64,000 bases of DNA from sequence record NC_070873.1; one strand, given 5' to 3'. The DNA is from Escherichia phage St11Ph5. Below, one piece after another: positions 22,560-40,100 of this stretch. A program made the translations under genes and the position numbers. The stretch's first letter is position 1; every line of letters begins with the position of its first letter. The notes beneath the pieces are model-generated. The model was not told the DNA's origin, did not search any database, and saw only the letters and a program-made list of their open reading frames with translations.

Positions 22560-23870
22560 ATGTTTTCCAAACCTACCAAAGCCCCGCTGAACAAGGGGCA
22601 AGAAGCGGTTGCGAAGGAGTTCTTCGACTTCCTGCTCAACCCTAATGCTACCGAATTCAATATTAGTGGCCCAGGGGGAACTGGCAAGACATTCCTGATG
22701 TCGCACCTCATTGATGACACAATGCCTGCATATATGGAAACTTGCTCCCTTATGGGAACCAAGCCTCTGTATAACGAAGTTGTTATGACTGCGACCACGA
22801 ACAAAGCTGCTGAAGTTCTGGCTCAGGCTACTGGACGTCCAACATCTACCTATCATTCCTTTCAGGGGCTGATTGTTAAAAATGACTTTAAGACTGGTGA
22901 GGCTAATGTCGTGCCGTCTAAATCATTCAATATTAAGAAGAACAAAATCATCTTCGTAGACGAAGCATCCATGATTGACCGTCAGTTACTTAAGTATGCT
23001 CGTGAAGGTACTCACCAGTGCAAACTGGTATTCGTAGGAGATGCTTCTCAGCTTCTGCCTGTTAAAGAGAATAAGTCTCCAGTGTATGCAGGTAATATCC
23101 CAACACACTATCTGACTGAACAGATGCGTACCGATGCACCGGAACTTAAAGCATTGCACCAGCAATTGCGTGATACGGTGGAAGGTAAGACAGGCTTCCT
23201 GCCTATTAAATGTATTCCAGGCATCATTGACTGGGTACAGGGAGAAGAGATGGAGAAACTGGTTCTCAGTCACTTCACTCAACCTACCAATAGCCGTATT
23301 GTTGCTTACACAAATGACCAGGTTATTAATTACAATAACTACATTCGTAAAGCCAATGGCTACGTGGGTGAATACTCCATTGGTGAACAGTTAGTTTCTA
23401 ACTCTGCTGTTCGCTTAGGTGTGGAAGACCGTCTGTCTATTGAGCAGGACGTAAAACTCATTGACCAGGATAGTAGTACTCGCATGATTCAGGTTACAGG
23501 TGACCTGGAACTGGAAGTTCGTGATAGTACTCTGGACCTTGGTTATGGTGGTATTGTAAGTGAAGTTCCAGTACCTACTGACCCAGACTACTTCAACCGT
23601 TTGGTTAAGTGGCTTGGTAAAGAGAAGAACTGGGAACCTTACTTCCGTCTTAAAGAAACCATTCCAGACCTGCGTGCTACTCATGCATGTACTGTCCATA
23701 AATCACAAGGCTCTACTTACGACACAATCTTCATTGATGCAGATGACCTCTCAAGCTGTCGCCAACCTGATATGGTTGCCCGTCTGCTTTACGTCGCTGT
23801 GTCCCGTGCACGTAAGCGAGTAGTGTTCTATGGCAATCTTGTCAGTAAGTATGGTGGTCTAACTTTCTAA
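22560..23870 (+). CDS. SF1 DNA helicase, Dda/RecD-like (436 aa)
   Basis: Walker A GPGGTGKT, Walker B FVDEASM, C-terminal TVHKSQGSTYD and VAVSRARK motifs. Confidence 0.8.
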   Translation: MFSKPTKAPLNKGQEAVAKEFFDFLLNPNATEFNISGPGGTGKTFLMSHLIDDTMPAYMETCSLMGTKPLYNEVVMTATTNKAAEVLAQATGRPTSTYHSFQGLIVKNDFKTGEANVVPSKSFNIKKNKIIFVDEASMIDRQLLKYAREGTHQCKLVFVGDASQLLPVKENKSPVYAGNIPTHYLTEQMRTDAPELKALHQQLRDTVEGKTGFLPIKCIPGIIDWVQGEEMEKLVLSHFTQPTNSRIVAYTNDQVINYNNYIRKANGYVGEYSIGEQLVSNSAVRLGVEDRLSIEQDVKLIDQDSSTRMIQVTGDLELEVRDSTLDLGYGGIVSEVPVPTDPDYFNRLVKWLGKEKNWEPYFRLKETIPDLRATHACTVHKSQGSTYDTIFIDADDLSSCRQPDMVARLLYVAVSRARKRVVFYGNLVSKYGGLTF

Positions 23871-24420: not shown

Positions 24421-27000
24421 ATGCGTTACATCACCTCTCAAGATACGGGTAAGTATCCTATTGCTATCCTCGGTCATCAAATCCGAAGGGAGGAGATGAT
24501 TAAAACCTACCTGCTGCCTAATGACCTAAGTATGGAAGATTTCATCTTCATTGAACTTCATTCTGCCCCTGGTAAGAAGAAGACTCCTGCAAGGGAGATT
24601 AAGGAGTTCATACAGCAGGAACTGCAACAAGTACTGGATGATGCAGAGACTCAGTACATTATCTGTACCGATTCTGATTACTTTAAAATACTGACTAAAG
24701 AAGCTAAAGCAGAGGCTAACCTCGGCTATGTTTGTGACTCAGTATGGGGTAAGCAGAAGGTTATCTATGCACCTAGCTACAGACAGGTCTTTTATGACCC
24801 TCCTGTAGTGAAATCCAAGATTGCTCAGGGTATGGATGCATTACTTAACCACATTCGTGGACAGTATGCTGAACCAGGTCATGGAATCATTGAGTTTGAA
24901 GCCTACCCAGATACTCCGGAAAAGATTAAAGCCTGGTTAGACCAATTGCTTGAGATGAATAAGCCTCTGGCTATAGATATCGAAGCATTCGGTTTAAAAC
25001 ACTATAACGCCGGTATAGGGACAATTACATTCTGTTGGAGTAAGACACAAGGCATAGCCTTTAATGTGGACTACGAGCCGATTCCTGGAGCTACTGAAGC
25101 ACCTTATGGGCGTATCAACAGAAATGATATTGTTCGAAATCTTCTACGTGAGTTCTTCATTAAGTACACCCAACGGCAGATGTATCACAACATTAGCTAT
25201 GACGTGTATGTGCTTATCTATCAGTTATTCATGGATAATCTGATTGATACAGAAGGCTTACTGCATGGCATGGAAATCATGCTACGTAATTGGGACTGTA
25301 CTAAGTTAATCACCTACTTGGCTACTAACAGTTGTGCTGGTAATCACCTTAGTCTGAAAGACCAGGCTCAAGAGTATGCTGGTAACTATGCTCAGGATGA
25401 TATCAAAGACATCCGTCTTATTCCTAATGAGCAACTGTTACGCTACAACCTCATTGATGGTTTATGTACTTGGTACACCTATGAGAAGCACTGGGATACC
25501 TTGGTAGCTGATGACCAACTGGATGTTTACAACAACATCTTTAAGCCAGCTTGTGAAGACATCATCCAGATGCAATTAACCGGTATGCCTATGAATATGG
25601 ATACCGTTAACCAAGTAGCTAAGGAGATGGAAACTGACAGGAACCAAGCTCTGAAAACTATTCGTGAGTCTAAGCTCATGAAGAATTTCACCCTGATGCT
25701 TCGTCAGGAATGGGTAGATGATAAGAATGCTAAGCTCAAGAAGAAGCAGGTGACGCTTGCTGACTGTGACATCGAGTTTAATCCAAACTCCGGTCCACAA
25801 TTACAGAAGCTGTTATTTGATTATATTGGCTTACCGGTTCTTGGTCTTACTAAGAGCAAGCAACCTGCTACTGACGGTGACACTATTAAAGCACTGCGTA
25901 CACACACGCAGAGTGAAGATGTTAAGGAACTGCTCAATGCACTTATCGACTATAAGCTCGTGGATAAGATTATCACTAGCTTTATACCAGCTTTCAGGAA
26001 TGCCCAACCCGGGCCGGATGGATGGCACTACCTATTCGGCAACCTCAATCTGGGAGGCACAGTCTCCGGTAGGCTATCGGCTTCAGAGCCAAATCTACAA
26101 ACAATTCCATCCGGCTCTAAATATGCCAAGAAGATTAAGAAATGCTTCGAAGCTCCTCCAGGCTGGATATTTTGCGGCTTGGATTTCGCCTCGCTGGAAG
26201 ACAGAATCTCTGCACTAACTACTAAAGACCCACAGAAGCTTAAGGTATATACCGATGGCTATGATGGGCACAGTCTCCGTGCATATGCTTACTTTGGTGA
26301 GCAGATGCCAGACATAGAAGACACAGTAGAATCCATTAACTCCATTCAGCATAAGTACAAATCATTACGTAGTGACTCGAAGGCTCCAACCTTCTTGCTT
26401 ACCTATGGTGGTACGTATATGGGGTTAATGAAAAACTGTGGCTTCTCTGAAGAGAAAGCTAAGACTACAGAGAAGCGTTATCACGACCTCTATGTAGTTA
26501 GCGACCAGTGGGTTCAGGCTAAGCTAGACGAAGCTGCCAAAACTGGTTATGTTACTGCCGCATTCGGTTTGAGAGTGCGTACTCCTTTACTGGCTCAGGT
26601 TTTACGTGGGACATGTAAGACTCCGTATGAAGCAGAAGCAGAAGGCAGAACTGCTGGTAATGCTTTAGGGCAAAGCTGGTGTCTACTGAATAACCGTGCT
26701 GGTTCAGAATTTATGCGTAAAGTCAGAGCCAGTGAGTTCAGGTTAGATATACGTCCTAGTATTCATATTCACGATGCTCAGTACTTCATGATTCGTGACA
26801 ACATGGATACCTTGCAGTTCACGAACAAGCACTTGGTTGAGGCCGTTAACTGGCAAGACCATCCCGATATTGCTCATCCAGAAGTTGGTTTGGGTGGGGA
26901 ACTATCCTTGTTTTACCCAACGTGGGCTAACGAGATTGAAATTCCAAATCACGCTACCCCAGAAGAAGTTCATCAAATAATTCAAAAGGCATTCGCATGA
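24421..27000 (+). CDS. DNA polymerase, family A, with 3'-5' exonuclease domain (859 aa)
   Basis: Exo I LAIDIEAFG; motif A LDFASLEDRI; motif B RSDSKAPTFLLTYGG; motif C HIHDAQ. Confidence 0.85.
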   Translation: MRYITSQDTGKYPIAILGHQIRREEMIKTYLLPNDLSMEDFIFIELHSAPGKKKTPAREIKEFIQQELQQVLDDAETQYIICTDSDYFKILTKEAKAEANLGYVCDSVWGKQKVIYAPSYRQVFYDPPVVKSKIAQGMDALLNHIRGQYAEPGHGIIEFEAYPDTPEKIKAWLDQLLEMNKPLAIDIEAFGLKHYNAGIGTITFCWSKTQGIAFNVDYEPIPGATEAPYGRINRNDIVRNLLREFFIKYTQRQMYHNISYDVYVLIYQLFMDNLIDTEGLLHGMEIMLRNWDCTKLITYLATNSCAGNHLSLKDQAQEYAGNYAQDDIKDIRLIPNEQLLRYNLIDGLCTWYTYEKHWDTLVADDQLDVYNNIFKPACEDIIQMQLTGMPMNMDTVNQVAKEMETDRNQALKTIRESKLMKNFTLMLRQEWVDDKNAKLKKKQVTLADCDIEFNPNSGPQLQKLLFDYIGLPVLGLTKSKQPATDGDTIKALRTHTQSEDVKELLNALIDYKLVDKIITSFIPAFRNAQPGPDGWHYLFGNLNLGGTVSGRLSASEPNLQTIPSGSKYAKKIKKCFEAPPGWIFCGLDFASLEDRISALTTKDPQKLKVYTDGYDGHSLRAYAYFGEQMPDIEDTVESINSIQHKYKSLRSDSKAPTFLLTYGGTYMGLMKNCGFSEEKAKTTEKRYHDLYVVSDQWVQAKLDEAAKTGYVTAAFGLRVRTPLLAQVLRGTCKTPYEAEAEGRTAGNALGQSWCLLNNRAGSEFMRKVRASEFRLDIRPSIHIHDAQYFMIRDNMDTLQFTNKHLVEAVNWQDHPDIAHPEVGLGGELSLFYPTWANEIEIPNHATPEEVHQIIQKAFA

Positions 27001-27302
27001 CCAAAAGTACTAAAGAAACTGTAGTCAGAAAATATCATTGGATGGTAGCAGCACAGGTAGTATTCCAACTTCCTAAAGTGGATGATGGTTCCCTGCTTAC
27101 CATGAATACAATGTTGCTCACTGATGAACCTTATGTGACCTATAAAGATTTGGCCCGTGCCAATCACTCCCTGAAAATTAGTCTGGACCAACGCTTCGAT
27201 ACCTCAGTTGACTTGAAAGACATTGTTTACCTGTCTCTTAGCAACCTGGGTCTGATGTCTGAACCAGAGTTCCAGGCAAACATGATTCCTAAGGAGAAGT
27301 AA
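26997..27302 (+). CDS. hypothetical protein (101 aa)
   Basis: ATGA start/stop overlap with the polymerase gene. Confidence 0.45.
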   Translation: MTKSTKETVVRKYHWMVAAQVVFQLPKVDDGSLLTMNTMLLTDEPYVTYKDLARANHSLKISLDQRFDTSVDLKDIVYLSLSNLGLMSEPEFQANMIPKEK

Positions 27303-27769
27303 TGGCTAAGCTCTCCGGTGGATTGAATAACTGGTATGTAGTACCAGTTAAGCACCCTCAACGGAAAGAGCAAGAGCCATATCAAGCGGAGTGTGAGGAT
27401 ATTATCCAAGCACTGGGCATGACCTTCGATGAAGGTTGTGCCTTTAAAGCTCTATGGCGAAATGCTGCTGCCCGTATGGGTAATGGTAAACCAGGAAACA
27501 CTTCAGTATATGACGCTGAAAAGCTAGTTCATTACGCTAATCGTATTCTTACTAAGGAGAAGTTAGTAGATGAATTGCCTGCCACAGATACCACTGCTAT
27601 TGGGAGATGCTGGCATTACCCAGGAAATGGGAAGCCTTATATAACAACAAACTTTCAGTTCATTGAGGTAGCCTACAAAGGTGAGCTAGATAATATAGTC
27701 AGCTATAACTTCGATGAGGTAGAGGGTATTCGCTGGAACCAGGTGCATAAATACAGGATTACCTACTGA
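27302..27769 (+). CDS. hypothetical protein (155 aa)
   Basis: ORF, start abutting previous stop. Confidence 0.5.
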   Translation: MAKLSGGLNNWYVVPVKHPQRKEQEPYQAECEDIIQALGMTFDEGCAFKALWRNAAARMGNGKPGNTSVYDAEKLVHYANRILTKEKLVDELPATDTTAIGRCWHYPGNGKPYITTNFQFIEVAYKGELDNIVSYNFDEVEGIRWNQVHKYRITY

Positions 27770-28749
27770 TGAAGATAACCAACAACCATGATGTCTCACT
27801 GGCCCTGGCTGTATGGCTATTACATGACGAGTATGATTACGTAGACAATCCTAAGTATTTGTCTGTTACTACATTGCTTAAGCCTATTAAGCAAATCGTC
27901 ATGAAACATCGTGTAGATCTAAGTGACCAGTCAATTGATGTTATGGATTTCGTCTCCACATCAATGGGTACTGGTTTACATGATTCTATCGAGAAAGCCT
28001 GGAAGTTAGGCCATAAGACTGCATTGAAGAAGTTGGGGTATCCTCAACGAGTAATTGATGCAGTAGTTATTAACCCAACCAAAGCAGACTTTGATGCTAA
28101 CCCTGACCTTATCCCAATCTACATTGAACAACGTGGAACCAGGGTAGTTAAGGGTTGGACTATCGGTGGTAAGTTCGACATCGTAACAGAAGGTCTGTTA
28201 CAAGACTTTAAGTCTACCTCAACCTATTCCTGGGTTGCTGGTTCCCGTGATGATGAACATAAGATGCAAGGCAGCTTGTACCGTTGGATTCACAACGACA
28301 TCATCACCGAGGATGTAATTCGTATTAACTACATCTTCACTGACTTCATGAAACACATGGCTAATAGCAATCCGAACTATCCTGCTAATCGTATTATGCA
28401 TAAGGATATTCCGTTGCTATCTGTCGATAAGACTGAACGTTGGGTAGAAGAGAAGATTCACCTCATTGAGAAATACTGGAATGCACCTGAAGAGGAAATT
28501 CCTGAATGTACTGACGAGGAGTTGTGGCGAACAGAGCCACAGTTCAAGTACTTCTCTGATGCTTCTAAGGTAGATGTACCTGGAGCCAGAAGTACCAAAA
28601 ACTTTGATGATATGGCATCTGCTCGTATCTTCATGGCTGAAAAAGGTGGCAAGGGTGCTATCAAGGTCGTGGAGGGGCAGGTTAAGCGTTGTCTATACTG
28701 CCCTGTCGCATCCATTTGCAAACAAAGAGAGAGATATTTTCCATCATGA
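27769..28749 (+). CDS. PD-(D/E)xK nuclease, Cas4/RecB-like with C-terminal Cys cluster (326 aa)
   Basis: GKFDIV ... LLQDFK (D ... DxK), QGSLY (QhxxY-like), C-terminal CLYCPVASIC (C-x2-C-x5-C). Confidence 0.55.
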   Translation: MKITNNHDVSLALAVWLLHDEYDYVDNPKYLSVTTLLKPIKQIVMKHRVDLSDQSIDVMDFVSTSMGTGLHDSIEKAWKLGHKTALKKLGYPQRVIDAVVINPTKADFDANPDLIPIYIEQRGTRVVKGWTIGGKFDIVTEGLLQDFKSTSTYSWVAGSRDDEHKMQGSLYRWIHNDIITEDVIRINYIFTDFMKHMANSNPNYPANRIMHKDIPLLSVDKTERWVEEKIHLIEKYWNAPEEEIPECTDEELWRTEPQFKYFSDASKVDVPGARSTKNFDDMASARIFMAEKGGKGAIKVVEGQVKRCLYCPVASICKQRERYFPS

Positions 28750-30899
28750 GTATTGACCTTACCGGAGTAGTGCATCATCCGGCGATTGAAGAAATCGTAG
28801 ATGTGCTCTGCAATAAAACCCAGAATAATGACCGGGGATTCTTCCGTGTCGAAGTAGCCTACTTCTTGGCTAAAATGGCATCCTGCATGGGTGCAACCAT
28901 TGTAACTAAAGACCGTGGTGACCTGCCGGTAAACATCTACGCTATTGCGTTGGCTACATCTGGTTTCGGTAAAGGTCACTCAATAAATATCATTGAAGAC
29001 GGGTTCATGACTGGCTTCCGTAAACGCTTTATGGAAGACACCATGCCCGTCATTGCAAATGACCGTTTATGGAAGATTGCTAACGAACGTTCTGCACGGC
29101 AGGGTACTGACCAGCAGGAAGAGTTTGATAAAGTTGAGGCAGAGTATAAACGTGCAGGAGCATATCCGTTTACGTTTGACTCTGGTACTCCACCGGCAGT
29201 TAAACAACTACGTCATAAACTGTTAATGGCTGGGTGTGGTTCAATCAACCTTCAGATTGATGAAATTGGTTCAAACCTGCTGGCTAATACGGACGTGTTA
29301 ACACTATTCCTGGAGCTATATGACCAGGGTAAGGTTAAGCAGAAGCTAACCAAGAACACTGCTGAAAGCGTTCGTGGTGAAGAACTGGATGGTAAGACCC
29401 CAGCTAACCTGTTGCTATTTGGTACACCAAGTAAGCTACTGAATGGTGGTCAGACCGAAGACCAGTTCTATGATTTCCTTGATACAGGGTATGCACGTCG
29501 TTGTCTGTTTGCCATTGGGCATTTAGACAAACGAGCACATGCAACAATGTCTCCAGAAGAAATCTACCGTAACCTGATTAAGCAGGATAACGTACAGTCT
29601 CTAGGTAAGTGGGCCAATCACTTCCATAGTCTGGCTGACCCAAACTTGTTCGGCTTTAAGATGGTCGTGGAAGATGCAGTGGGTATTGCACTGATTACTT
29701 ACAAAATTGATTGTGAGAAACAAGCAGAAGCTATGGCTGACCACGAAGAAATTCGTAAAGCTGAAATTTCCCACCGTTACTTCAAAGCACTTAAACTGGC
29801 TGGTGCATTGGCGTTTGTTGACCAGAGTTCATTCATTGAGATGTCCCACCTTAAACAAGCAATTCTGCTTGTAGAAGAATCCGGGGCAGCATTCCAGGGT
29901 ATTCTCAATCGTGAGAAAGCCTATGTGAAGCTGGCTAAGTATATTGCCTCTGTAGGTAAAGAGGTAACTCATGCTGACTTGCTGGAGTCGTTACCATTCT
30001 ATAAGAGTGGCAATGCAGCTCGTAATGAAATGATGACCCTTGCTACAGCATGGGGCTACAAACAGCACATCATCATTAAGAAAACCTTCAATGAAGGCAT
30101 TGAGTTCTTCCGTGGTGAAACTCTGAAAGAAACTGACATCAATGAGATGATAGTGGCTTATAGTGATAGCTTTGCTTATGACTACATTGGTGAACGTGTA
30201 CCGTTCGACCAGTTGCATGTATTAACCCAAGCTCCCGGTATGCACTGGGTAAACCATCACATGAAGAATGGACATCGTTCTGAAGAGAACGTTATTCCAG
30301 GATTTAACATGATTGTTATTGACTGTGATGGTGGAGTACCACTGCATACGTGCCATGAACTGATGAAGGAATATAAGTTCATGACCTATACCACTAAGCG
30401 GCATTCTGATGAAGAGAACCGATTCCGACTGATTATTCCAATGAACTATGAGTTACACCTCGACACCGAGGAATACAAAGAGTTCATGAATAACGTCATG
30501 TCTTGGCTACCGTTTGAAACGGATGAATCTGCTAACCAACGAGCCAAGAAGTGGATGTCCTGCGAGACTGGTTCCTATCATTACAATCTTGAAGCAAATC
30601 TGTTGGATGTGCGTGATTTTATTCCTCGTACTAGTAAGAACGAGCAGTTCCAGATCCAGATGAAGGAAGTACAGTCGTTGGATAATCTGGAGCGTTGGTT
30701 CGCTAGTCGTATTGCTACCGGTAACCGTAATAATCAAATGATTAAGTACGCACTGGCATTGGTTGACAGTGGTTGGGATTTTGCCCAAGTACAGCAAGCC
30801 GTCCACTCATTCAATAAGAAACTGGCTAATCCATTGCCAGATGATGAGTTGAATGCAACCGTAATGGTCACCGTGGCTAAACGCTTCGCTGGCAAGTAA
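28746..30899 (+). CDS. DNA primase, archaeo-eukaryotic-primase type with PriCT-like C-terminus (717 aa)
   Basis: MIVIDCDGG (hhhDhD AEP motif I), RFRLIIP, C-terminal GNRNNQMIKYALAL; start moved to ATG 28746. Confidence 0.6.
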   Translation: MSIDLTGVVHHPAIEEIVDVLCNKTQNNDRGFFRVEVAYFLAKMASCMGATIVTKDRGDLPVNIYAIALATSGFGKGHSINIIEDGFMTGFRKRFMEDTMPVIANDRLWKIANERSARQGTDQQEEFDKVEAEYKRAGAYPFTFDSGTPPAVKQLRHKLLMAGCGSINLQIDEIGSNLLANTDVLTLFLELYDQGKVKQKLTKNTAESVRGEELDGKTPANLLLFGTPSKLLNGGQTEDQFYDFLDTGYARRCLFAIGHLDKRAHATMSPEEIYRNLIKQDNVQSLGKWANHFHSLADPNLFGFKMVVEDAVGIALITYKIDCEKQAEAMADHEEIRKAEISHRYFKALKLAGALAFVDQSSFIEMSHLKQAILLVEESGAAFQGILNREKAYVKLAKYIASVGKEVTHADLLESLPFYKSGNAARNEMMTLATAWGYKQHIIIKKTFNEGIEFFRGETLKETDINEMIVAYSDSFAYDYIGERVPFDQLHVLTQAPGMHWVNHHMKNGHRSEENVIPGFNMIVIDCDGGVPLHTCHELMKEYKFMTYTTKRHSDEENRFRLIIPMNYELHLDTEEYKEFMNNVMSWLPFETDESANQRAKKWMSCETGSYHYNLEANLLDVRDFIPRTSKNEQFQIQMKEVQSLDNLERWFASRIATGNRNNQMIKYALALVDSGWDFAQVQQAVHSFNKKLANPLPDDELNATVMVTVAKRFAGK

Positions 30900-30955
30900 G
30901 CAAACAGGAGTCTTTCTTTGGTTTGAAGGACTCCTAAATTAAATGAGGAAAAATA

Positions 30956-31708
30956 ATGTCCGAAGTAATTCCCAATGATATGAACACTCAGCTAATCCTG
31001 ATTGCAGGATTCTCAGCGAGTGGTAAATCAGCATCACTGCGTAACATCCGGAACCAGGAACGCTGGCTCTATCTGAATACTGAAGCAGGTAAACGTCTGC
31101 CTTTTCGTAACAAGTTCAATACCTATAACATTGAAGACCCTTACCAAATCTGGGAAGCATTTGATGTTGCATCTCCTGGTGGAGAAATGGCAGATGATGT
31201 TGATGGTATCATCATTGACTCAGCAACCTTTATGATGGATATGCTGGAATCCCAGTACGTATTGCCTTCTGCAAATACGCAAAAGGCATGGGGTGACTTT
31301 GCACAGTTCTTTAAGATACTGCTGCAACAAAAAGTCGTTAAGTTTGGTAAGCCAGTAATCATTACTGCCCATGCTAAAGACGAACTTGATGAAGCTGCTG
31401 GTGTAATGAAAACATTCATCCCAGTGAAAGGTTCTCTGAAGAATAACGGGCTTGAAGCCTACTTCTCTACAGTGGTTTACGCAGAACGTGTAGACATTAA
31501 AGAACTGGAGAAGTACGGAAACAAGATGCTTGAAATTACGGAAGAAGAACGTGACTTAGGGTATAAGCACGTATTCCAGACCCGTCCAACTAAGAAGTCG
31601 GTCGGTAAACGACTTCGTTCTCCAATGGGTATGTTCGATAAGTCCGAGACTTACATTGATAACGATGCCCAAAAACTCTTAGACCATCTGGCTGAATACT
31701 ACGCTTAA
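30956..31708 (+). CDS. P-loop ATPase, RecA-fold (AAA_24/Sak4-like) (250 aa)
   Basis: Walker A GFSASGKS, Walker B IIIDSATF. Confidence 0.5.
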   Translation: MSEVIPNDMNTQLILIAGFSASGKSASLRNIRNQERWLYLNTEAGKRLPFRNKFNTYNIEDPYQIWEAFDVASPGGEMADDVDGIIIDSATFMMDMLESQYVLPSANTQKAWGDFAQFFKILLQQKVVKFGKPVIITAHAKDELDEAAGVMKTFIPVKGSLKNNGLEAYFSTVVYAERVDIKELEKYGNKMLEITEEERDLGYKHVFQTRPTKKSVGKRLRSPMGMFDKSETYIDNDAQKLLDHLAEYYA

Positions 31709-31747
31709 GCGTTTGCCTGGTTGTTAATCACTTATTAGGAAAATCAT

Positions 31748-32551
31748 ATGTCATTGTTCAGTAATCTGAAAGAAAAAACCAAAAACGTTGAAGCTGTTAA
31801 AGACTCCCTTGGTGGTGGTGGCTTCGGTGCAAAAGAAACCGATATCTACACTGGTACTGTAAAAGTAGCTTACGTAGGCAAAGCTGACTCTGGTGCAGAT
31901 TGGATGCAGTTAATCATTGAAGACCTGAAGAACTCTGATGGCGTACCTGCTGGTGAGTTCCGTGCTCAGGTGTACTTCACTTCTGGTAATGCTAAAGGCA
32001 ACAAGCCGACTTACGAGAAGAACGGTAAAGAGTACTTCTTGCCTGGCTACACTGTCATTAACGACATGATGCTGATGGCTACCGGTACTGAACTGCCTGA
32101 AGCTGACTTCGAAGAGAAGATTGTTAAAGTCTATGACTTCGATGCTAAAGCAGAAGTTAATAAATCCGTCATGGTTCCGGTTGACCTGGTAGGTCAGACT
32201 GTTACCTTCGCTCTGGAAAAGGTTCTGGAATCCAAGCAGGTTAAAGGTGACAACGGTTACGTTGACTCCGGTGAAACTCGTGAAGTAAACGAGATTCAGA
32301 AAGTGTTTCATCCGGAACTGTTGGTCACAGTCGTCGAAGGTCAGGAAGCAGAGAAGGCTGAGAAAGAACTGACCCCAGAACTGGCTGTATTCTATGCAGC
32401 ATGGCTGGAAAAGAACAAAGGCAAGACTCGTGACAAGACTAAGAGTTCTGCTGGTGGTAATGGTAAAGGTGGCTTACCTCCTAAACCAGGTGCAGGTGCT
32501 GGCACAGGTACTGCTCCTGCTGGTGGTAAATCACTGTTCGGTAAACGTTAA
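31748..32551 (+). CDS. single-stranded DNA-binding protein candidate (N4 SSB-like size/position; 267 aa)
   Basis: Position in replication module, about 265 aa, Gly/Pro/Ala-rich flexible C-terminal tail; no canonical OB motif recognised by eye. Confidence 0.4.
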   Translation: MSLFSNLKEKTKNVEAVKDSLGGGGFGAKETDIYTGTVKVAYVGKADSGADWMQLIIEDLKNSDGVPAGEFRAQVYFTSGNAKGNKPTYEKNGKEYFLPGYTVINDMMLMATGTELPEADFEEKIVKVYDFDAKAEVNKSVMVPVDLVGQTVTFALEKVLESKQVKGDNGYVDSGETREVNEIQKVFHPELLVTVVEGQEAEKAEKELTPELAVFYAAWLEKNKGKTRDKTKSSAGGNGKGGLPPKPGAGAGTGTAPAGGKSLFGKR

Positions 32552-33105
32552 TGAAAATCCCAATTGTCGGTGCAGACATTAGTCTCCGCAATTGGGGTTT
32601 AGCTCGTGGGATGCTGGACATTGAGTCCGGTGTCTTCGAGCAGGTCGAACTTAAACTGGTTCAAACTGAAGTTGACCACAACAAACAAGTTCGAACCAAC
32701 TCCAAAGATATACAAGCCGCTCACGATTTGTTTCTTGGTTGTGAGGAATGGTTACGGTCTGCTAAAGCAGTATTCGTAGAAGTACCAGTAGGCTCTCAGT
32801 CTGCTAACGGTATGAAATCCTATGGAGTATGCGTAGGATTAATCGGTGCATTCCGTGCATTGGGTTGTCCAATCTTTGAAGTATCCCCAATTGAAAACAA
32901 ACTTGCACTGGTCGGTGATAAAACTGCATCCAAAGACACGATGATTCGTGCTGCTCATGCCATTTATCCTGAAGCCAACTGGCTCACTGATAAGAAAGGT
33001 AAACTTCTAAATAAGAATGAGCACTTAGCAGATGCAATCGGTGCAATCCATGCTGGTGTAAATCTCCCAGCTTTCCAGAACCTCATTAAGTTATTAAAGG
33101 CGTAA
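32551..33105 (+). CDS. RuvC-like Holliday junction resolvase (184 aa)
   Basis: N-terminal MKIPIVGADIS and C-terminal LADAIGAIHAG resemble RuvC-fold catalytic segments. Confidence 0.55.
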   Translation: MKIPIVGADISLRNWGLARGMLDIESGVFEQVELKLVQTEVDHNKQVRTNSKDIQAAHDLFLGCEEWLRSAKAVFVEVPVGSQSANGMKSYGVCVGLIGAFRALGCPIFEVSPIENKLALVGDKTASKDTMIRAAHAIYPEANWLTDKKGKLLNKNEHLADAIGAIHAGVNLPAFQNLIKLLKA

Positions 33106-33106
33106 T

Positions 33107-33550
33107 ATGCAAATCATTTTGAACCAGTCCGAAGTAGAAGCTGCTGTACAGGCTTATGTCGATGATCAAATCAATCTTGCTGGTGACATCAATATTGTCA
33201 TCAATGCAGATGGTACTGCCTCCGTTGGTATTAATGAAGAGGTAAGTCATGATGATGACACCCCACCCGTGGTAGAGAAGAAGACTCGTCGTTCTCGTAA
33301 GAACCCACAAGAAGCTAAACATCGTCCGGTAGAACCAGAACCGGAAGAAGTAGCTGAAGAGGTAAAGGTAGAAGAAACCCAGACCTCTACTGGTGGTCAG
33401 AACGAGAGTTCTACGCCGGAACCTGAAGAAGAAGCAGTAACTGAACCAGAAGCACAAGAAGAAGTTGTGCAGGAAGAAGTTAAGGCTGAAGAACCAGCAG
33501 AAAAACCTGCTACTAAGCCTTCACTGTTCGCTGGCCTTAAACGTAGTTAA
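33107..33550 (+). CDS. highly acidic Glu/Pro-rich protein (147 aa)
   Basis: Low-complexity PEPEEE/EEV repeats in the C-terminal two thirds. Confidence 0.5.
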   Translation: MQIILNQSEVEAAVQAYVDDQINLAGDINIVINADGTASVGINEEVSHDDDTPPVVEKKTRRSRKNPQEAKHRPVEPEPEEVAEEVKVEETQTSTGGQNESSTPEPEEEAVTEPEAQEEVVQEEVKAEEPAEKPATKPSLFAGLKRS

Positions 33551-33781
33551 TCTGGTAGGTGGCTCAGAAGCTGCTGCTAGGTGTGGTAGTGTTTATAGTC
33601 CTGATGCTACTACTGGTCAGGATTATAGACGTGTCGGCTCCATACATAGCTTTTATCATCACTGTCATTATCCTGTGGAAATGCAGTGGTAAACACGGTG
33701 GTGACAAGCCGCCAGAGTAACAACAACCGAACCAGTGTGCAGGAATACTCTCCCCTGTGCATTGGTTCAACTGAGGCCAAT

Positions 33782-33952
33782 ATGAACAAATTTACTATTC
33801 ACTGGTTTAATGGAAAGGTTAGTTCTTTCATGGGTGGAGAACCTGCTGAAGGAAAGAAAGCATTTCACATTGAATCAGAAGGCTGCAAAATCTTAGTACC
33901 GTATGTTTGGTATAAAGATGGTGAAGTAGAAGCATTAAAAAAGAGTAGTTAA
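33782..33952 (+). CDS. small hypothetical protein (56 aa; start moved to internal ATG)
   Basis: GAGG upstream of ATG 33782; the N-terminal part of the listed ORF lies in a likely non-coding stretch. Confidence 0.3.
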   Translation: MNKFTIHWFNGKVSSFMGGEPAEGKKAFHIESEGCKILVPYVWYKDGEVEALKKSS

Positions 33953-34352
33953 TATCGTGAAGGGTTCTGTTAGAATCCTTTGAGATAGGAACTCCTATCA
34001 TAACCTTTCTTAACTTAATCTTTGCCGTATGGCACTGACGCTAGGGTTTATGCCCATCCGTCAGGTAGACTATTTTAAGAATGGGTTATCACAGCAAATG
34101 TAAAGCAACATTCGGGTTAATCAATGGCCTCTCCCTATAGGGGCCATTTCTGAATCTTAGGCTATATCCCAAAGGTTAGCATCTTTGGGATAAGGCTTCA
34201 GATCCCTTATCAACTAACGCTCATGCTGAGCACAACATTAACCAATAATGTCGGATAGTTCATTACGCTATTCATCCAGCATCGAGATGTTAGGTCTTAC
34301 ATGTAACATAGGGTATAAAGGGAGGACTCGTCCCCTCCCTCCTATTATAATG

Positions 34353-34422
34353 GTCGGGGTAGCACGTAGGCATGTGCAGAAGGTCGCTACTTCTCTCGCT
34401 GGTTCGAATCCAGCCCCTGACC
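34353..34422 (+). tRNA. candidate tRNA (70 nt; anticodon loop reads gt-CGC-ta), no encoded CCA
   Basis: Hand fold: acceptor 34353-59/34415-21 (7 bp, one G-U), D-stem GCAC/GTGC, anticodon stem AGAAG/CTTCT, T-stem GCTGG/CCAGC with TTCGAAT loop; short variable region is atypical. Confidence 0.4.
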
Positions 34423-34878
34423 TACTGACATCCTATCAATGAGTACATTAGGCTAACGTGCGGAGGTTTACACTGTAGCCGGTGTAGGTGGAGAAGACGG
34501 CAGGGTAGCTACCTGTGCTTAGTGTACTCTTTGATAGTTTTCGTAAGCGATTATGCGGTTTTTTAGAAATGAACCAATAACATAAATGCAAACGATGATG
34601 TTGTTCTGATGGCGGCGTAATAGCCTGTAAGTCAGCAAGGTCTTCCTATTCCTTGTAAATAAATTCGGCGCAGTGGCCCGCTGTAATTAATAATGGGCAC
34701 ACAACAGGTAAGAGCATTGGGTAATGTCAGCCTTGGTTCGAAGTCGAAAGACATGCGGTAATACCCAGCCAAAGTTCCAGTGCTCTTTCCGTTGTGGAAA
34801 TGCAAGCACAACAAGTCCAGACGATATCTGAGTGACTATAAAAACAGATGGAGCCAGGTGGAATCCCTGGCAATCAAT

Positions 34879-35270
34879 TCCGGTGTAGGTACTAGTGTCG
34901 TGCACGGCATGAGTGTTCTGGTTCGAGTCCAGACGCCGGAACCAATTACCAGTTGCACGAGATGGCTTGACATGTTCAAGTTTGGACTAAGTGTGACACC
35001 GCTAGATTGGAGGGCTGCTGCGGTAAGCTATAGACTCCAACCGGGGGTTCGAATCCCTCACTGGTAACCAATTCAAAGTAGCATTGCACTAATCCATCCC
35101 GGAGTTCAAAGACCAAACATGGAGCAGTGCTACTTTGAATTAGAAGAATTAAGGTGGGTCTGGTGAAGTAGATAGGGTTCGATTCCCTCCGGTAGAGTAA
35201 TCTACTAGCGTGCTTGGTGCATGAATAAGACTTAATACTGGTGGTTCGATTCCATCCCCCACTACCTATT
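34879..35270 (+). ncRNA. cluster of tRNA-like elements (GGTTCGAnTCC T-arms with acceptor-like 3' ends, two ending A-CCA at 34944 and 35070)
   Basis: Four T-arm motifs at 34917-33, 35043-59, 35173-89, 35240-56; acceptor partners sit 63-124 nt upstream, so canonical cloverleaves could not be completed by hand. Confidence 0.3.
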
Positions 35271-35794
35271 TGAGGTGTAACAGTTAAATCCAGTTGCCGG
35301 AAGTGCTATTCTAGATACGCTGCCAATGTGTGAACGGTAAGGCTGTACAGGACTCGGACTCCCACCTCAAACCAAAGTCGCCAGGTACTTATGGCAAACG
35401 GGTAGTAACGAACTAGTCATTCGTCAAACGCCCAACCTATTATGAGTCAGCAAGAACGCCTTCACTTAAACTTAAACAATATGAAAAGTTTCCGTAGATA
35501 CTATATAGGGGTATGTAGGGGCTACGAAGAAGGAGCCAGTTAAAGTCTGGCATGGCTCGCCTATTAATAGAGAACATAGTCCTGATTGCATTGCACTCTA
35601 AAGACAATGCCGGTGAGACAGTCCGGCACTCTAGTTATTGTAAACATACCCACTGACGAGTGGGTATGAGTATGAGCAGACTATAATGCTCAAATACAGT
35701 TATCTATTATCGGACTATCAATCCTGTTTGCTGGTACAAGCACCGGTGGTAATAGTTAACTGGCCTAACCTCGTTAGCTGCGTTAAAGCTACTA

Positions 35795-35820
35795 AGTCCC
35801 TCTTCGGAGGGACTTTTTTA
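35795..35820 (+). terminator. intrinsic terminator (AGTCCCTC-TTCG-GAGGGACT then TTTTTTA)
   Basis: 8-bp stem, TTCG loop, T-run. Confidence 0.75.
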
Positions 35821-35841
35821 TTTGAAAGTAGGAGAAATACT

Positions 35842-36117
35842 ATGGCTAAATATCGTAAAAAACCTGTTGAGATTGAAGCTTTTCAATGGGACGGTAGTCT
35901 TAATCTGAACAAAGAACCAACTTGGATAGTAGATGCTCTTCATAATGGGGTAGTCTGGTTCTCTGGGAAGGATAATAAATTATGTATCAGAACTCTGGAG
36001 GGTATCTTAACTGCTTCCCCCAATGACTATATTATCCAAGGTATACATGGGGAGCTATATCCGTGTAAACCAGATATATTCCTGGAAACCTATATCAAAT
36101 CAACAACCGTAAGCTGA
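35842..36117 (+). CDS. hypothetical protein (91 aa)
   Basis: ATG after GTAGGAG. Confidence 0.5.
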   Translation: MAKYRKKPVEIEAFQWDGSLNLNKEPTWIVDALHNGVVWFSGKDNKLCIRTLEGILTASPNDYIIQGIHGELYPCKPDIFLETYIKSTTVS

Positions 36118-36263
36118 AACTATGATTGACCTAATTTCTACTCCGTATGCCTATGAGGTAACGGATAACCGAGGACATAAGTACTTGGTATTTGCAGGTA
36201 GCGTAGCCTATAACAACGCAGTCATGTTTAAGTACAAACTCAAACCACTCTATGAGGCTAATA

Positions 36264-36644
36264 ATGGCAACAGTAAGTAAAGAAGCAATCGAAGCTAAGA
36301 TTAAGAGCGTTTACTATTTTAATGGTGCTGACGCAGTGAAATCTGCATTCGTTGACCCATTTGCACTTCCAGTAGACGATTTGGCTAACCTGGGTCTGAC
36401 AACCCATTGTGTAATCATTCTGGAAAATGGATTCAAAGTTGAAGGCAAATCCGCCTGTGTAGACCCGGCTATCTATGATGAGCAAAAAGGTCGTCAGTAT
36501 GCATATGAAAATGCATTCAATAAGATTTGGGAATTAGAGGGTTACCTGCTACGCCAGGCACTGCATGAGAAAGAAGAGACTGCTAAAGCTCTGGCTTCCT
36601 TTGCAGAAAACAACACTTGTGATGGTGGTGGTTGTACAATCTGA
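36264..36644 (+). CDS. hypothetical protein (126 aa)
   Basis: ATG at 36264 after GAGG. Confidence 0.5.
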   Translation: MATVSKEAIEAKIKSVYYFNGADAVKSAFVDPFALPVDDLANLGLTTHCVIILENGFKVEGKSACVDPAIYDEQKGRQYAYENAFNKIWELEGYLLRQALHEKEETAKALASFAENNTCDGGGCTI

Positions 36645-36726
36645 TTCAAAGGTGTAAGGTAGTTTTTACCGAAAGGTACTGAACTACCCGACAAAGTAGT
36701 AAGGCTCATGAAGCCAAAACAAAACA

Positions 36727-36754
36727 AGCCCTCCTAGTGAGGGCTTTCTCATTT
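36727..36754 (+). terminator. stem-loop, probable terminator
   Basis: AGCCCTC-CTAGT-GAGGGCT followed by TTCTCATTT. Confidence 0.5.
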
Positions 36755-36777
36755 AATGGAAAGACTCTAGGAGCACT

Positions 36778-37071
36778 ATGGAACTCTTTAAGAAGGGTCA
36801 GCTTATACCAAAGCGTATTGGTGGATTACATGTCCATCGTAAAGCCCGACACCGTTTAACCTTTGGTTGTGATGTACAAATTGATGGTAATAGCTGGATT
36901 GCTGTACCGGATACAGGAATTGCAATGGTTCTCTGTAAGAAGTTAGGTATTCGCAGAAACAACGGTACTTACCAAAACGTAGATGCAGATTTTGTAGATA
37001 TTTACTTTGAAGCTAACAAGATTGATTATGTAATCAAGACTGGCAAAAAGATTCTTGTAGTTAAGAAATAA
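36778..37071 (+). CDS. hypothetical protein (97 aa)
   Basis: ATG after AGGAG. Confidence 0.5.
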   Translation: MELFKKGQLIPKRIGGLHVHRKARHRLTFGCDVQIDGNSWIAVPDTGIAMVLCKKLGIRRNNGTYQNVDADFVDIYFEANKIDYVIKTGKKILVVKK

Positions 37072-37077
37072 AATAGA

Positions 37078-37102
37078 AGCCCCTCATTAGAGGGGCTTTT
37101 TC
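37078..37102. terminator. bidirectional terminator between convergent plus-strand genes and the minus-strand vRNAP gene
   Basis: AGCCCCTC-ATTA-GAGGGGCT flanked by T-runs on both strands. Confidence 0.7.
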
Positions 37103-37104
37103 AT

Positions 37105-40100
37105 TTAGTTAGTTAGGTTGAGCCATGGGTTCAGGGTATGGGCACGTAAGCCTTGTCCTAAACCGAAGGAGTAACCGAGATTACCCTGTGCAGCAATGCT
37201 AAAGATGTTGTCCTGAATAGGAAGACCGACGTTACCAAACATGGTAGGAGTTGGAGCCAGCATAGCCATAGCAGCATGTACTGGGTTATTACGAATCATG
37301 GACACTGCAACTTTTGCAGAACGAATCTTAAAGTTGTAGAACCACATTAAACCAACACTTTCCATATATCCACGGAAGCGTCCTGGTAAACGGTCATAGT
37401 TAATGAACTCTTCCGTTACACGTCCTAGTGCTTCTTCACGAGTCTTGCCTTTACGCTGGGTCAGTTCATCATAGATGATTGCTTTAGCGATAAAGTCAGA
37501 GTACTCAACTGTCTTCTGGATACCCTGGAAGAGGGCAGTATCCTTAGTGATAAGTGCATAACGCCCTGCGTTACGTACAGACTTAGGCAGCTTATCAGCC
37601 AGCTTATCCATGTATTCGTGAATCTTACCTTCAGTAATCAGGATGTCATCACGCCCAATACCAGCATCTGCAATTGAAGAGAACTCACCAGCTTCTAACA
37701 GAGGCCAGATACTCAAACGTTTATGGCTATCCGTGATGGACTGAATCTCAGCCTTAAGTTTACGAATCTGGTTCGGGTTGGTAGCTGCACGTAATTCTGC
37801 TTCTGCATCTACCTGGCGCAGACGAGATTTTAGGTACTGATTAATCTCAGCAGTTTTCTGTGGAATGCTCTTAGCAATGTTCTTAACAGGTACACCACGA
37901 GCAACCATCTGGTAAAGGTTAGCCAGGAAGTTAACAGCAGGTACAACTACTGACTTAACTACAATCAGAGTCTTAGCTTCTTTAACTAAGTTCTGAACCA
38001 GATTCTCACCACCCATTACATACTTATAAGCACGGTTGCCAAATACACCCAGCATAGCTTTCTTGAAGGTATCCAGTGTTTCTGGGGACCAACGAGAATT
38101 ACCAGACCAGGCATCACCAACAGAAGCTGCACGATAACCAAGAGCATCATTGAGCATGTCACGACGTACCCATAACTCACCCGGACCAAACAGACTTTCT
38201 GCTTTCTGACGAGTTTCACTGTTCATCAGCTTAAGTGCATCAGCAGTTACTGGGTCCAGTTTAGAACCAAGAAGGTTAACGTACTGGGACTTATTAGAGG
38301 CAGACATCTTAATATCGTTCTCATACATGCTATGCAGATTCTCAATAAGCATGTCGTTGAAACGCTGAGCCTTAGCCTCTTCCACCTGACGTCCACGCCA
38401 TACACCAATCGCACGAGCAAGATGGTTCTCACCTTCGATGTGCTTCAGCATATTAGGGTCAATGGATTGCTCGTAAGCAACCACATTACCATTGGCATCA
38501 TATACAGGCAGCAATGGTTCATTACCACGTTCACCGCGAGCCAGTGCTTTAGTAACACGGTCCACGGAAGGCTTGTCAGTGATACGACCAGCTACCATGG
38601 TTCCCATAGTAAAGCCTGTACCAAGGTCTACGCCACCAGCAGTATTGCGAACGTTCTGCAGGATACCCTGTGAGAATGGAGCCTGTGCCTGTACTGGTGC
38701 AAAGTAGTAGCTACGTGCTGGCCCACGATTAGCAGAGCTACCCTGATAAGTGCCCAGTCGTACATAGGATTTCTCAATCAAATCAGCAAACTGACTATCT
38801 TCAGCAACAATCAGGTTAACACCCTGTTTAGTCTCACCAGGGATATATCCTTTGTACTGGTTCAAGGTTGCACGACTATCAGACTTAGCTTTAGCCATTT
38901 CGTCTTTACGCTGACCAACCAGGTAAGAAGTAGCAAAGTCCATACCTTCAATTTCTGTCTGAGCCAGTGAAGATAACATCTCACGGTCAGTCTTATTCAT
39001 TGCTTCCAGTGCATACAGAGTAATCAGTTTATCCAGCTGAGCTACATCTACAACAGAACGTGTAGTCTTACGTTCGCCCAGCAATCGAGAAATTGCAGTA
39101 GCATTACGCAGCAGGTTATTACCAACAGTACCATTAATCATGTACTGAGCCAGTTGCTTAGATTTACGGTTAATCAAAGACCAGTTACGTCCGGCTTGTT
39201 TCTGCAAATCTGCTTCCAGTTTATTAACCTCACGGTCAACAATCTTCTGGTCAGTTAGCAAGTCACGGATTTCAGCCAAAGACATAGTGTCACGCAGAAC
39301 AGCTAAGTCAGTTTTACCCATACCGGTATGCATTGCTTTCCACTCCTCATTAGTCAGCTTACGGCTGAACTTAGATGCGATAGTGGTAGGTAAATGTTCA
39401 CGGAACTGTTGACGGTCAGCCTGTACCTGTGCACGTACTGCTTTAATCAAATCATACACAGAAGCATTGCTCTTAGTACGTCCGATTATGTCATTAACCA
39501 GGTCATGGAAAGGTTGCCATACTTTACCCTGGTTCATTGCAGCCATAACACCTTCAGCTACGATTGAACCATTCTTCTCTGTAGCAATAGCAGCTATCAG
39601 TTGTGCAGCATGAGCAGCACCTTTGACCAATGGGTTCTTGGTATTAGCCGCAACTTCACGAGCACCTTCCAAAGCACGGGTAGACAGCACATCAATAGAA
39701 TCCACCAGATACTGGTTAGCACGGTCGATAGCATTACCAGTAGGAGTAGCAACGGAATCATAGAAGGATTCTGCATTAAGACTGGTCTGCATGATTGTCT
39801 GAGCCAGTGCATCCATACCTTCCTGTACGTTAGTGGCTTTAGTATCACCTGCAACACGAGCATTCAGACTAGCCATTGCAGCAGTACCGATGTTAGTCAG
39901 CATTGCGTCAACAGTATTGCCAGATTTCTTATCTGCTTTCATAACAGGAATATCAGCCAGCACCTTACGTACTTCTTCACTTACCATTGCCAGACCAACA
40001 AAGGTAGGCAGTAAGGAAGAACGACCATGTGCATCAAACTCAATGTTGTTAGCACCCATGATGGTATCGAACTTCTGCTGTGCATAGTAACGGTCAGCAG

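Follow-up and report, generated by a model that had tools for sequence, protein, structure and literature searches.

Does the compact row of five genes that Escherichia phage St11Ph5 carries at 27769-33105 encode the means for replication tied to recombination, and what are the parts of such a machinery? The initial annotation, made from the sequence letters, had read there, in order, a Cas4/RecB-like nuclease, an archaeo-eukaryotic-type (AEP) primase whose first 450 or so residues matched nothing recognised, a Sak4-like ATPase, an SSB-like and a RuvC-like protein, and had entertained an additional role for the nuclease against host CRISPR adaptation. We consider it highly probable that the best overall explanation is an N4-like replication/recombination block working as set out in the last section, while the CRISPR idea fares poorly and the primase region proves to have a published identity.

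An N4-like gene block

The window, by which is meant the whole 64,000-nt stretch of record NC_070873.1 that was analysed, comes from an N4-like podophage of the genus Gamaleyavirus (Schitoviridae), the closest record being that of Escherichia phage nithesis (PV252060) at 95.7% nucleotide identity. Gene calls within 27769-33105 give five close-packed genes on one strand (+; all features described below lie on it unless otherwise stated), in the order nuclease, primase, ATPase, SSB and resolvase that had been proposed, and all five boundaries are annotated CDS boundaries of nithesis. Since the boundaries agree with deposited records and the homologues of each product number in the thousands, chance ORFs or mis-called frames were rejected. 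A PHROG family matches each of the five proteins with E 1.9e-42 or better. Searches of PDB with the five single sequences gave no meaningful match, NCBIfam gave no usable match and a scan for promoters and terminators within the block gave nothing notable.

The five proteins are orthologues of N4 gp42-gp46, and it is on that orthology together with the fold and catalytic motifs of each that their identity stands. Gene order, strand, sizes and overlaps are all those of N4 (NC_008720), with BLASTP identities over approximately the full length of 71% for gp42, 82% for gp43, 79% for gp44, 59% for gp45 and 69% for gp46; the difference is at the species/genus level only (Gamaleyavirus versus Enquatrovirus). 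Synteny extends over N4 gp37-gp50, and the flanks are alike, with a Dda-like helicase gene (22560-23870) and a family-A DNA polymerase (Pfam DNA_pol_A, 24421-27000) upstream, and downstream on the opposite strand a giant virion RNA polymerase gene (a 3601-aa ORF, 37105-47910, minus strand, annotated vRNAP in the closest record). One departure is the small upstream gene, the counterpart of gp41, where similarity to N4 is confined to the first ~86 aa. The replication module is conserved among N4-like phages (PMC2784036; PMC4496689), and in N4-like roseophages the annotation of gp42-gp45, conserved there too, reads exonuclease, primase, Sak4 and SSB (PMC11934525). The region makes up the downstream half of a conserved N4-like replication/recombination block, standard and already known, and all five of the functional labels first given to it are upheld by profile, structure or orthology evidence.

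The exonuclease and its cysteines

The first gene (27769..28749) encodes a PD-(D/E)xK exonuclease of Cas4/RecB-like type, 326 aa long, orthologous to N4 gp42 (71% identity) and matching phrog_2139 'exonuclease' with E 8e-152. Its motifs, D137, D146-F-K148 and Q167-G-S-L-Y171, are invariant in 25 of 25 homologues, and across the same set, which reaches down to 53% identity, so are H71, D72, E75 and E120. With the AF2 model (pLDDT 88), Foldseek puts Cas4 SSO0001 (4ic1) first at E 2.8e-7, followed by RecE, the RecB nuclease, Exo5, MGME1 and lambda Exo, which bears out the Cas4/RecB-like assignment. Sequence profiles are less forthcoming: Pfam PDDEXK_1 gives 17.5 bits, below its gathering score of 22, with the protein itself, though it matches 13 of the 25 relatives at E <= 0.01 (best 9.3e-5), and the profile of the family had no match in PDB.

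The C-terminal C-x2-C-x5-C cluster that had been pointed out is present as C308-x2-C311-x5-C317, and is invariant in the 25 homologues together with a fourth cysteine, C247. These are the only four cysteines in the protein, spaced C247-x60-C308-x2-C311-x5-C317, and they are probably the ligands of a metal (Fe-S) cluster. Like Cas4 SSO0001, AddB, Exo5 and Dna2, the protein has D...D-x-K and Q-x3-Y motifs and, at the C-terminus, the C-x2-C-x5-C triad, and its fold is that of Cas4/RecB-family PD-(D/E)xK nucleases (4ic1 by Foldseek, with Exo5 and the RecB nuclease also listed). In Cas4 and AddB, however, the first cysteine ligand lies at the N-terminus, upstream of the nuclease core, with the C-x2-C-x5-C following, and in Cas4, AddB, Dna2 and Exo5 the cluster staples the N-terminus to the C-terminus. 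The St11Ph5 protein has no cysteine N-terminal of the core; its C247 comes after the core and 60 residues before the triad. Between the cysteine ligands the AF2 model places an alpha/beta element of ~55 aa, which is extra with respect to Cas4, AddB, Exo5 and Dna2. Read as a gp42-type arrangement, the pattern may put all four ligands on the C-terminal side of the catalytic core, where they would clamp the ~55-residue insert.

Is a Cas4-like nuclease in a phage a counter-defence factor that perturbs the acquisition of spacers by host CRISPR? What prompts the thought is that the closest solved fold is a Cas4 and that the protein also matches phrog_1706 'CRISPR/Cas system associated' at E 2.6e-10. 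Against it stand the departure of the cysteine pattern from that of Cas4, and the type I-E systems of E. coli, which are not known to have a Cas4 partner. Further, a PADLOC search at E <= 0.01 gave the nuclease no match to any model, and so none to the Cas4 models in that library; membership of a defence system, or of Cas4 proper, was rejected on this result. Nor is the setting suggestive, as the neighbours are replication genes with no CRISPR-cas neighbourhood, and N4-like phages of very different hosts keep the gene in their replication block. Interference with host CRISPR adaptation is thus without support and we consider it extremely improbable.

An exonuclease is known in N4 from genetics, and Guinta et al. 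are said to have described in 1986 that it acts 5'-3'. That gp42 is the product of the N4 exo gene is something we infer, and it stays at that level because no open literature linking the genetically defined exo to gp42 was found.

A helicase-primase with its domains in inverted order

The second gene opens with an ATG that, as read from the sequence, overlaps the stop codon of the nuclease gene as ATGA. That ATG start (28746) is used here, giving 28746..30899 and 717 aa, while the program-made ORF list begins at a TTG upstream, at 28689. The protein is the orthologue of N4 gp43 (dns), at 82% identity, matches phrog_2135 'DNA primase' with E 0, and has an AF2 model of pLDDT 92.

Its N-terminal portion, which had been set down as resembling nothing recognised, consists of a DUF3987/MCM-like AAA+ helicase domain and a winged helix, an identity that has been published for N4 dns (PMC4889955). 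The first of these, an SF6 helicase domain, occupies residues ~1-390 (28746..29915, the boundary being approximate). Walker A (S72-G73-x-G-K76) and Walker B (D172-E173) are both invariant among 40 homologues, and a candidate arginine finger, R251/R252, is followed by the lid. Then comes a winged-helix domain of three helices and a beta-hairpin at residues ~391-460 (29916..30125, approximate). The N-terminal domain displayed the MCM-like AAA+ fold for which it was tested, as the C-terminal part did the AEP catalytic fold. Profiles give a patchier picture: the protein of the window does not match Pfam PF13148 (DUF3987) at E 0.01, though 15 of the 40 homologous family members do (best E 8.9e-12), and the primase profile drew from PDB only a weak match to the MCM7 lid, at E 0.06.

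The AEP catalytic domain spans residues ~465-625 (30138..30620, boundaries approximate). The hhhDhD motif claimed for it, MIVIDCDGG, is AEP motif I and sits at residues 522-530, with D526 and D528 retained in at least 90% of the 40 homologues, down to 28% identity. T550/K551, R559/R561 and D593 are also conserved, and on the strength of that conservation T550-K551-x-H553 and D593 are candidates for AEP motifs II (sxH) and III (hD). The tail that had been called PriCT-like is a PriCT-1 helical domain at residues 654-706 (30705..30863), matched by Pfam PF08708 at E 9.9e-7 with 28.7 bits against a gathering score of 21.1; PriCT_1 is matched in 34 of the 40 family members.

N4 dns, which is essential for replication, has been described as a helicase of the DUF3987 kind that carries an AEP at its C-terminus, and the inverted order of its domains was already remarked upon there (PMC4889955). 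With the DUF3987 (SF6, MCM-related) helicases that AEP primases accompany, by fusion or as partners, such as AgaPH/AgaPP and that of mycobacteriophage Corndog, the St11Ph5 protein has in common the AAA+ core with its Walker A and B motifs and MCM-like fold, as well as the winged helix after the core and the association with AEP and PriCT (PMC4889955). Among DUF3987 proteins AgaPH unwinds DNA as a 5'-3' helicase (PMC11724360), and by analogy ATP-dependent unwinding is a putative activity of the St11Ph5 protein. Its order, helicase first and then AEP and PriCT-1, is the inverse of the usual AEP-PriCT-helicase-wH, and the resulting helicase-wH-AEP-PriCT arrangement might couple unwinding and priming in a way geometrically unlike that of classical primase-helicases. 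To see in the two proteins jointly both a distinct gp42-type metal-cluster arrangement within the Cas4/RecB branch and a gp43 order with an unusual unwinding-priming geometry is a tentative reading, and we incline somewhat against it.

Which helicase drives the fork? There is more than one candidate, since a second, Dda-like helicase is encoded upstream (22560-23870). Were that SF1 enzyme to drive the fork, the N-terminal AAA+ of the gp43-like protein could instead be an initiator or loader of the ORC/Cdc6/DnaA kind that recognises and opens the origin. We hold the initiator assignment to be improbable and proceed with the AAA+ as a predicted fork helicase.

The Sak4-like, SSB and RuvC-like proteins

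The third gene (30956..31708) encodes a Sak4-like, core-only RecA-fold ATPase of 250 aa, a predicted ssDNA-annealing protein orthologous to N4 gp44 (79% identity). Its Walker A is GFSASGKS (residues 18-25), and the Sak4-like label is sustained by Pfam AAA_24 (PF13479; E 5.1e-11; score 43.2 bits, cut-off 27), by phrog_124 'Sak4-like' (E 1.2e-49) and by local matches in collinear order (E 1e-6 and 6e-6) to HK620 Sak4, which has been characterised. The SSB gene begins 40 nt further on, and in N4-like phages Sak4 adjoins an N4-type SSB (PMC5928155). The arrangement resembles the HK620 pair of Sak4 and SSB (DUF669), where a core-only RecA-fold ATPase likewise stands beside an atypical SSB in the same gene order; St11Ph5 differs in being virulent and in encoding a nuclease itself, not an Abc2 hijacker of RecBCD. 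As HK620 Sak4 anneals ssDNA (SSA activity) and is stimulated by its cognate SSB (PMC5928155), single-strand annealing is the predicted activity of the gp44-like protein.

That neighbour (31748..32551, 267 aa) is an N4-type single-stranded DNA-binding protein, with phrog_743 at E 3.6e-88 and 59% identity over the full length (E 3e-102) to the biochemically characterised N4 gp45 (N4SSB), of which it is the orthologue. Its C-terminal tail, KSLFGKR, aligns with the KSLFGKK of N4, where S260, K264 and K265 are residues for activation of late transcription (PMC2784036). The N4 protein is essential for N4 replication (PMC2784036) and takes part in recombination and late transcription as well (PMC2784036; PMC4496689). 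No Pfam family matched the St11Ph5 protein, and hhalign of a shallow profile of 7 sequences against HK620 SSB (DUF669) returned a probability of 1.2% (E 0.043); a link between SSB and DUF669 has been published at 98% HHsearch probability (PMC4889955), and the N4-type SSB has been tied to HK620 SSB elsewhere too (PMC5928155).

The last gene (32551..33105), whose start codon shares one base with the SSB stop codon, encodes a protein of 184 aa with 69% identity to its orthologue, N4 gp46. It is matched by phrog_159 'RuvC-like Holliday junction resolvase' at E 1.9e-42, and D9, E77, H158 and D161 together with an NKNEHLAD block are invariant among 19 homologues, down to 36% identity. All six of the PDB matches obtained with the family profile are RuvC and in register, though weak (best E 0.01), and no Pfam family, RuvC included, matched any of the 19 family members. 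Sequence similarity to bacterial RuvC is very low; the acidic/His catalytic set is at equivalent positions, and the alignment to RuvC takes in the motifs 'G-x-D-P' at the N-terminal end and 'H-L-A-D-A' at the C-terminal end. The RuvC-like label stands, and the RNase H-fold protein is a candidate Holliday junction resolvase.

How might the five work together? As we envisage it, translation of the genes would be coupled where the start codon of one overlaps the stop codon of the gene before it. The gp43/dns-like protein would be a self-contained helicase-primase, with its N-terminal DUF3987/MCM-like AAA+ ring unwinding the fork, the winged helix aiding DNA binding, and the C-terminal AEP and PriCT-1 making primers for the phage polymerase, while the N4-type SSB would coat the exposed single strand. 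In N4 the C-terminal tail of the SSB later switches the host RNA polymerase to late promoters (PMC2784036). The Cas4/RecB-like nuclease, as a 5'-3' exonuclease, would resect ends, for instance at the terminal repeats, to leave 3' single-stranded tails, which the Sak4-like ATPase with its cognate SSB would anneal to complementary DNA, giving rise to concatemers and recombination-primed forks; the RuvC-like nuclease would clear branches ahead of packaging. This division of labour among the five proteins, and the extent to which replication would depend on recombination, are what we infer.

The same genes could be cast as a replisome and nothing else, with replication started at an origin independently of recombination, the nuclease removing primers or processing Okazaki fragments, Sak4 and SSB aiding fork restart and the RuvC-like protein only debranching for packaging. 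An exonuclease, an annealase, an SSB and a resolvase are, however, the classic phage recombination kit, as in lambda Red or T7 gp6/gp2.5/gp3. The location of the genes, directly after the DNA polymerase gene in one coupled block, would suit a plain replisome, as would the lack of a 5'-3' exonuclease domain in the N4-like polymerase (PMC2784036) and the stress that the N4 literature places on origin and vRNAP involvement, with the functions termed 'replication' (PMC2784036; PMC4496689). What tells against such independence is that Sak4 proteins are annealing recombinases, and that staphylococcal phages make hardly any genome multimers without Sak/Sak4 (PMC5928155). N4 SSB too is reported to be needed for recombination, going by the title of Choi et al. 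1995 (via PMC2784036 and PMC4496689). We regard replication free of recombination as rather unlikely here, and the recombination-linked reading agrees with the literature.

As a discovery the block counts for little: the module is conserved within a much-studied phage family and had been annotated before. The helicase-AEP fusion in gp43/dns is published already, and the 'unknown' part of the primase was explained in print in 2016. As a check on what can be read from the letters of a genome the locus is a clean one, five of five functions having been right, with the MCM-like helicase a gap that tools filled. The cysteine pattern of the nuclease is only a mildly unusual detail, posing a small structural question for specialists. 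Of specialist interest also is N4-type dns, where, in a bacterial virus, a predicted MCM-like helicase precedes the AEP primase within one fused protein.

A known module of N4-like phages

The five plus-strand genes at 27769-33105 in Escherichia phage St11Ph5 are an already known block, the gp42-gp46 module of phage N4. With boundaries taken from a six-frame ORF list of the window, they encode a 326-aa nuclease (27769-28749), a 717-aa helicase-primase (28746-30899), a 250-aa Sak4-like protein (30956-31708), a 267-aa SSB (31748-32551) and a 184-aa RuvC-like protein (32551-33105), and the limits drawn in the initial annotation coincide exactly with these five. On the same strand, the family-A DNA polymerase gene (24421-27000) and two small ORFs (26997-27302 and 27302-27769, the latter of 155 aa) precede the block, and a gene for a 147-aa protein (33107-33550) follows it. 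Since several adjacent genes overlap by 1-4 bases in the ORF list, the block looks translationally coupled; the ATG of the helicase-primase overlaps the nuclease stop codon in an ATGA, as read from the sequence, while the mechanical ORF list puts that start at a TTG further upstream.

Megablast of the block against deposited phage genomes gave 90 records, 62 of which span 80% or more of its length, the best being Escherichia phage nithesis (95.7% identity, 100% of the query). Also among the best matches are ECBP1, IME11, pSb-1, Bp4 and EC1-UPM, members of Gamaleyavirus (Schitoviridae). The nithesis record labels the five CDS exonuclease, DNA primase, Sak4-like ssDNA annealing protein, single-strand DNA binding protein and RuvC-like Holliday junction resolvase, with a Dda-like helicase and DNA polymerase annotated upstream and, downstream on the opposite strand, the virion RNA polymerase, whose counterpart here is a 3601-aa ORF (37105-47910). 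N4 carries at the equivalent positions gp42 exonuclease, gp43 DNA primase, gp44 Sak4-like, gp45 SSB and gp46, to which the proteins of the window are respectively 71%, 82%, 79%, 59% and 69% identical in pairwise alignments of essentially full length.

Several close relatives (megablast matches H9, H14, H15, H17, H22 and H25) have HNH or homing endonuclease genes annotated inside the block, which is matched there in two or three pieces; the window and nithesis are free of such insertions. The 155-aa ORF (27302-27769, plus strand) shares only its first ~86 residues with N4 gp41 (82% identity), and this ~88-aa module, which recurs terminally in several PHROG families that otherwise differ, one of them labelled 3'-phosphatase/5'-polynucleotide kinase, seems to be a small, shuffled domain. 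The stretch that separates the block from the virion RNA polymerase gene (33550-37100) contains few long ORFs, one tRNA-Ala(CGC) (34352-34423) and several strong hairpins with T-runs (e.g. 35794-35815, 36726-36746 and 37075-37100); the nithesis equivalent is annotated with two tRNAs and many tiny ORFs.

A predicted helicase ahead of its primase

The helicase-primase (28746-30899) has more than 4000 close relatives in a word-index search, and an exhaustive search with residues 1-450 gave 502 cluster representatives, nearly all of ~700-750 aa and the same architecture. Across 40 diverse full-length members (28-65% identity), S72, G73 and K76 (Walker A), D172 and E173 (Walker B), R251 and R252 are invariant, and D526, D528, T550, K551, R559, R561 and D593 nearly so. 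Pfam DUF3987 is matched by 15 of the 40 (best E 8.9e-12) and PriCT_1 by 34; an AEP motif and a PriCT-like tail at the C-terminus had been recognised initially. The family profile matches the MCM7 lid weakly in the PDB (E 0.06), and the very confident AlphaFold2 model (pLDDT 92) has MCM subunits as all of its top 50 Foldseek matches (best E 1e-5). In PHROG alignments, residues 182-384 pair with the C-terminal portions of other primase-helicase families and residues 502-708 with their N-terminal AEP portions, so the domain order is inverted relative to theirs. Family matches, modelled structure and this order together yield a four-domain map: a predicted MCM-like AAA+ helicase (residues ~1-390), a winged helix (~391-460), an AEP domain (~465-625) and PriCT-1 (654-706). 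The first ~450 aa, initially described as a large unassigned domain, now have an assignment, to the predicted helicase and winged helix.

This inverted order is shared with N4 dns, a DUF3987 (SF6, MCM-related) helicase with its AEP unusually C-terminal, which is essential for replication (Kazlauskas, Krupovic and Venclovas 2016, PMC4889955); the architecture is therefore not new, and is mildly unusual though published. A 5'-3' helicase activity was later demonstrated for a DUF3987 protein, AgaPH (PMC11724360). Less probably, the AAA+ domain would instead have an initiator-type role, with the upstream Dda-like helicase acting at the fork.

Some distant gp43/dns-family members (P0242, P0274 and P0316) reach ~1000-1035 aa because an extra ~280-320 aa interrupt the helicase domain, either at Walker B (query residues ~173-190) or at Walker A (~70). 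Given their sub-threshold matches to Intein_splicing/Hint and LAGLIDADG, these proteins probably have an intein within the ATPase active site; the protein of the window is free of such an interruption.

The nuclease and its putative recombination partners

The nuclease (27769-28749) matches the PHROGs 'exonuclease' family (E 8e-152) and a Cas4-type family (E 2.6e-10); its Pfam PDDEXK_1 match is sub-threshold (E 0.004; 17.5 bits, where 22 are required), and 13 out of 25 homologues have a PDDEXK_1 match with E <= 0.01. In these 25, down to 53% identity, H71, D72, E75, E120, D137, D146, K148, Q167 and Y171 are invariant, as are its four cysteines, C247, C308, C311 and C317. A confident AlphaFold2 model from their alignment (pLDDT 88) finds Cas4 SSO0001 (4ic1) as closest solved structure (E 2.8e-7, TM 0.62 on target), followed by RecE, RecB nuclease, Exo5, MGME1 and lambda exonuclease. 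PHROG match, invariant residues and modelled fold together uphold the initial PD-(D/E)xK, Cas4/RecB-like reading. The cysteine spacing, C-x60-C-x2-C-x5-C, puts the first putative ligand of an Fe-S or zinc centre downstream of the catalytic core, whereas in Cas4/AddB it is at the N-terminus; this is the other of the only two mildly unusual points of the system. Membership of Cas4 proper is unsupported, given this spacing, the lack of CRISPR context, and the failure of any PADLOC model, hence of any Cas4 model in that library, to match. The early suggestion that the nuclease could interfere with CRISPR adaptation finds essentially no support.

The remaining initial labels are supported. The Sak4-like protein (30956-31708) matches Pfam AAA_24 above threshold and the Sak4 PHROG (E 1.2e-49), with collinear local similarity to the characterised Sak4 of phage HK620. 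N4-like phages are among Sak4 carriers, sak4 usually adjoins the gene for an atypical SSB, a relative of N4 gp45, and annealing by HK620 Sak4, stimulated by its cognate SSB, has been demonstrated (Hutinet et al., PMC5928155). The SSB of the window (31748-32551) is, judged by full-length alignment, the N4SSB orthologue, and keeps the C-terminal KSLFGK(K/R), in which N4 residues S260, K264 and K265 are reported as necessary for late-transcription activation (PMC2784036); replication, recombination and late transcription are all reported to require N4SSB (PMC2784036, PMC4496689), and a link to DUF669 is published (PMC4889955); hhalign of a shallow, 7-sequence profile with the HK620 SSB scored a probability of 1.2% (E 0.043). 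The RuvC-like protein (32551-33105) and its relatives have no Pfam match; it matches the RuvC-like PHROG (E 1.9e-42), D9, E77, H158, D161 and an NKNEHLAD block are invariant among 19 homologues, and the family profile meets only RuvC chains in the PDB, in register and weakly (best E 0.01). Many viral contigs of ~100-110 kb (L028-L079), far larger than N4-like genomes, encode homologues of ~40% identity, so another group of phages has this RuvC-like family too.

A proposed division of labour

Identity, folds and motifs of the five proteins are established here; essentiality and activities are carried over from studies of N4, HK620 and AgaPH, and how the five share the work and how far replication depends on recombination is inferred. 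A pure-replisome reading of the block is possible, though less likely. The initial observation is confirmed and its interpretation supported, and the most likely scheme is one in which the helicase-primase would unwind and prime for the family-A polymerase; the SSB would coat single strands and, as in N4, later recruit host RNA polymerase to late promoters; the exonuclease would resect ends; Sak4 and SSB would anneal the resected tails, giving concatemers and recombination-primed forks; and the RuvC-like nuclease would debranch the DNA ahead of packaging.
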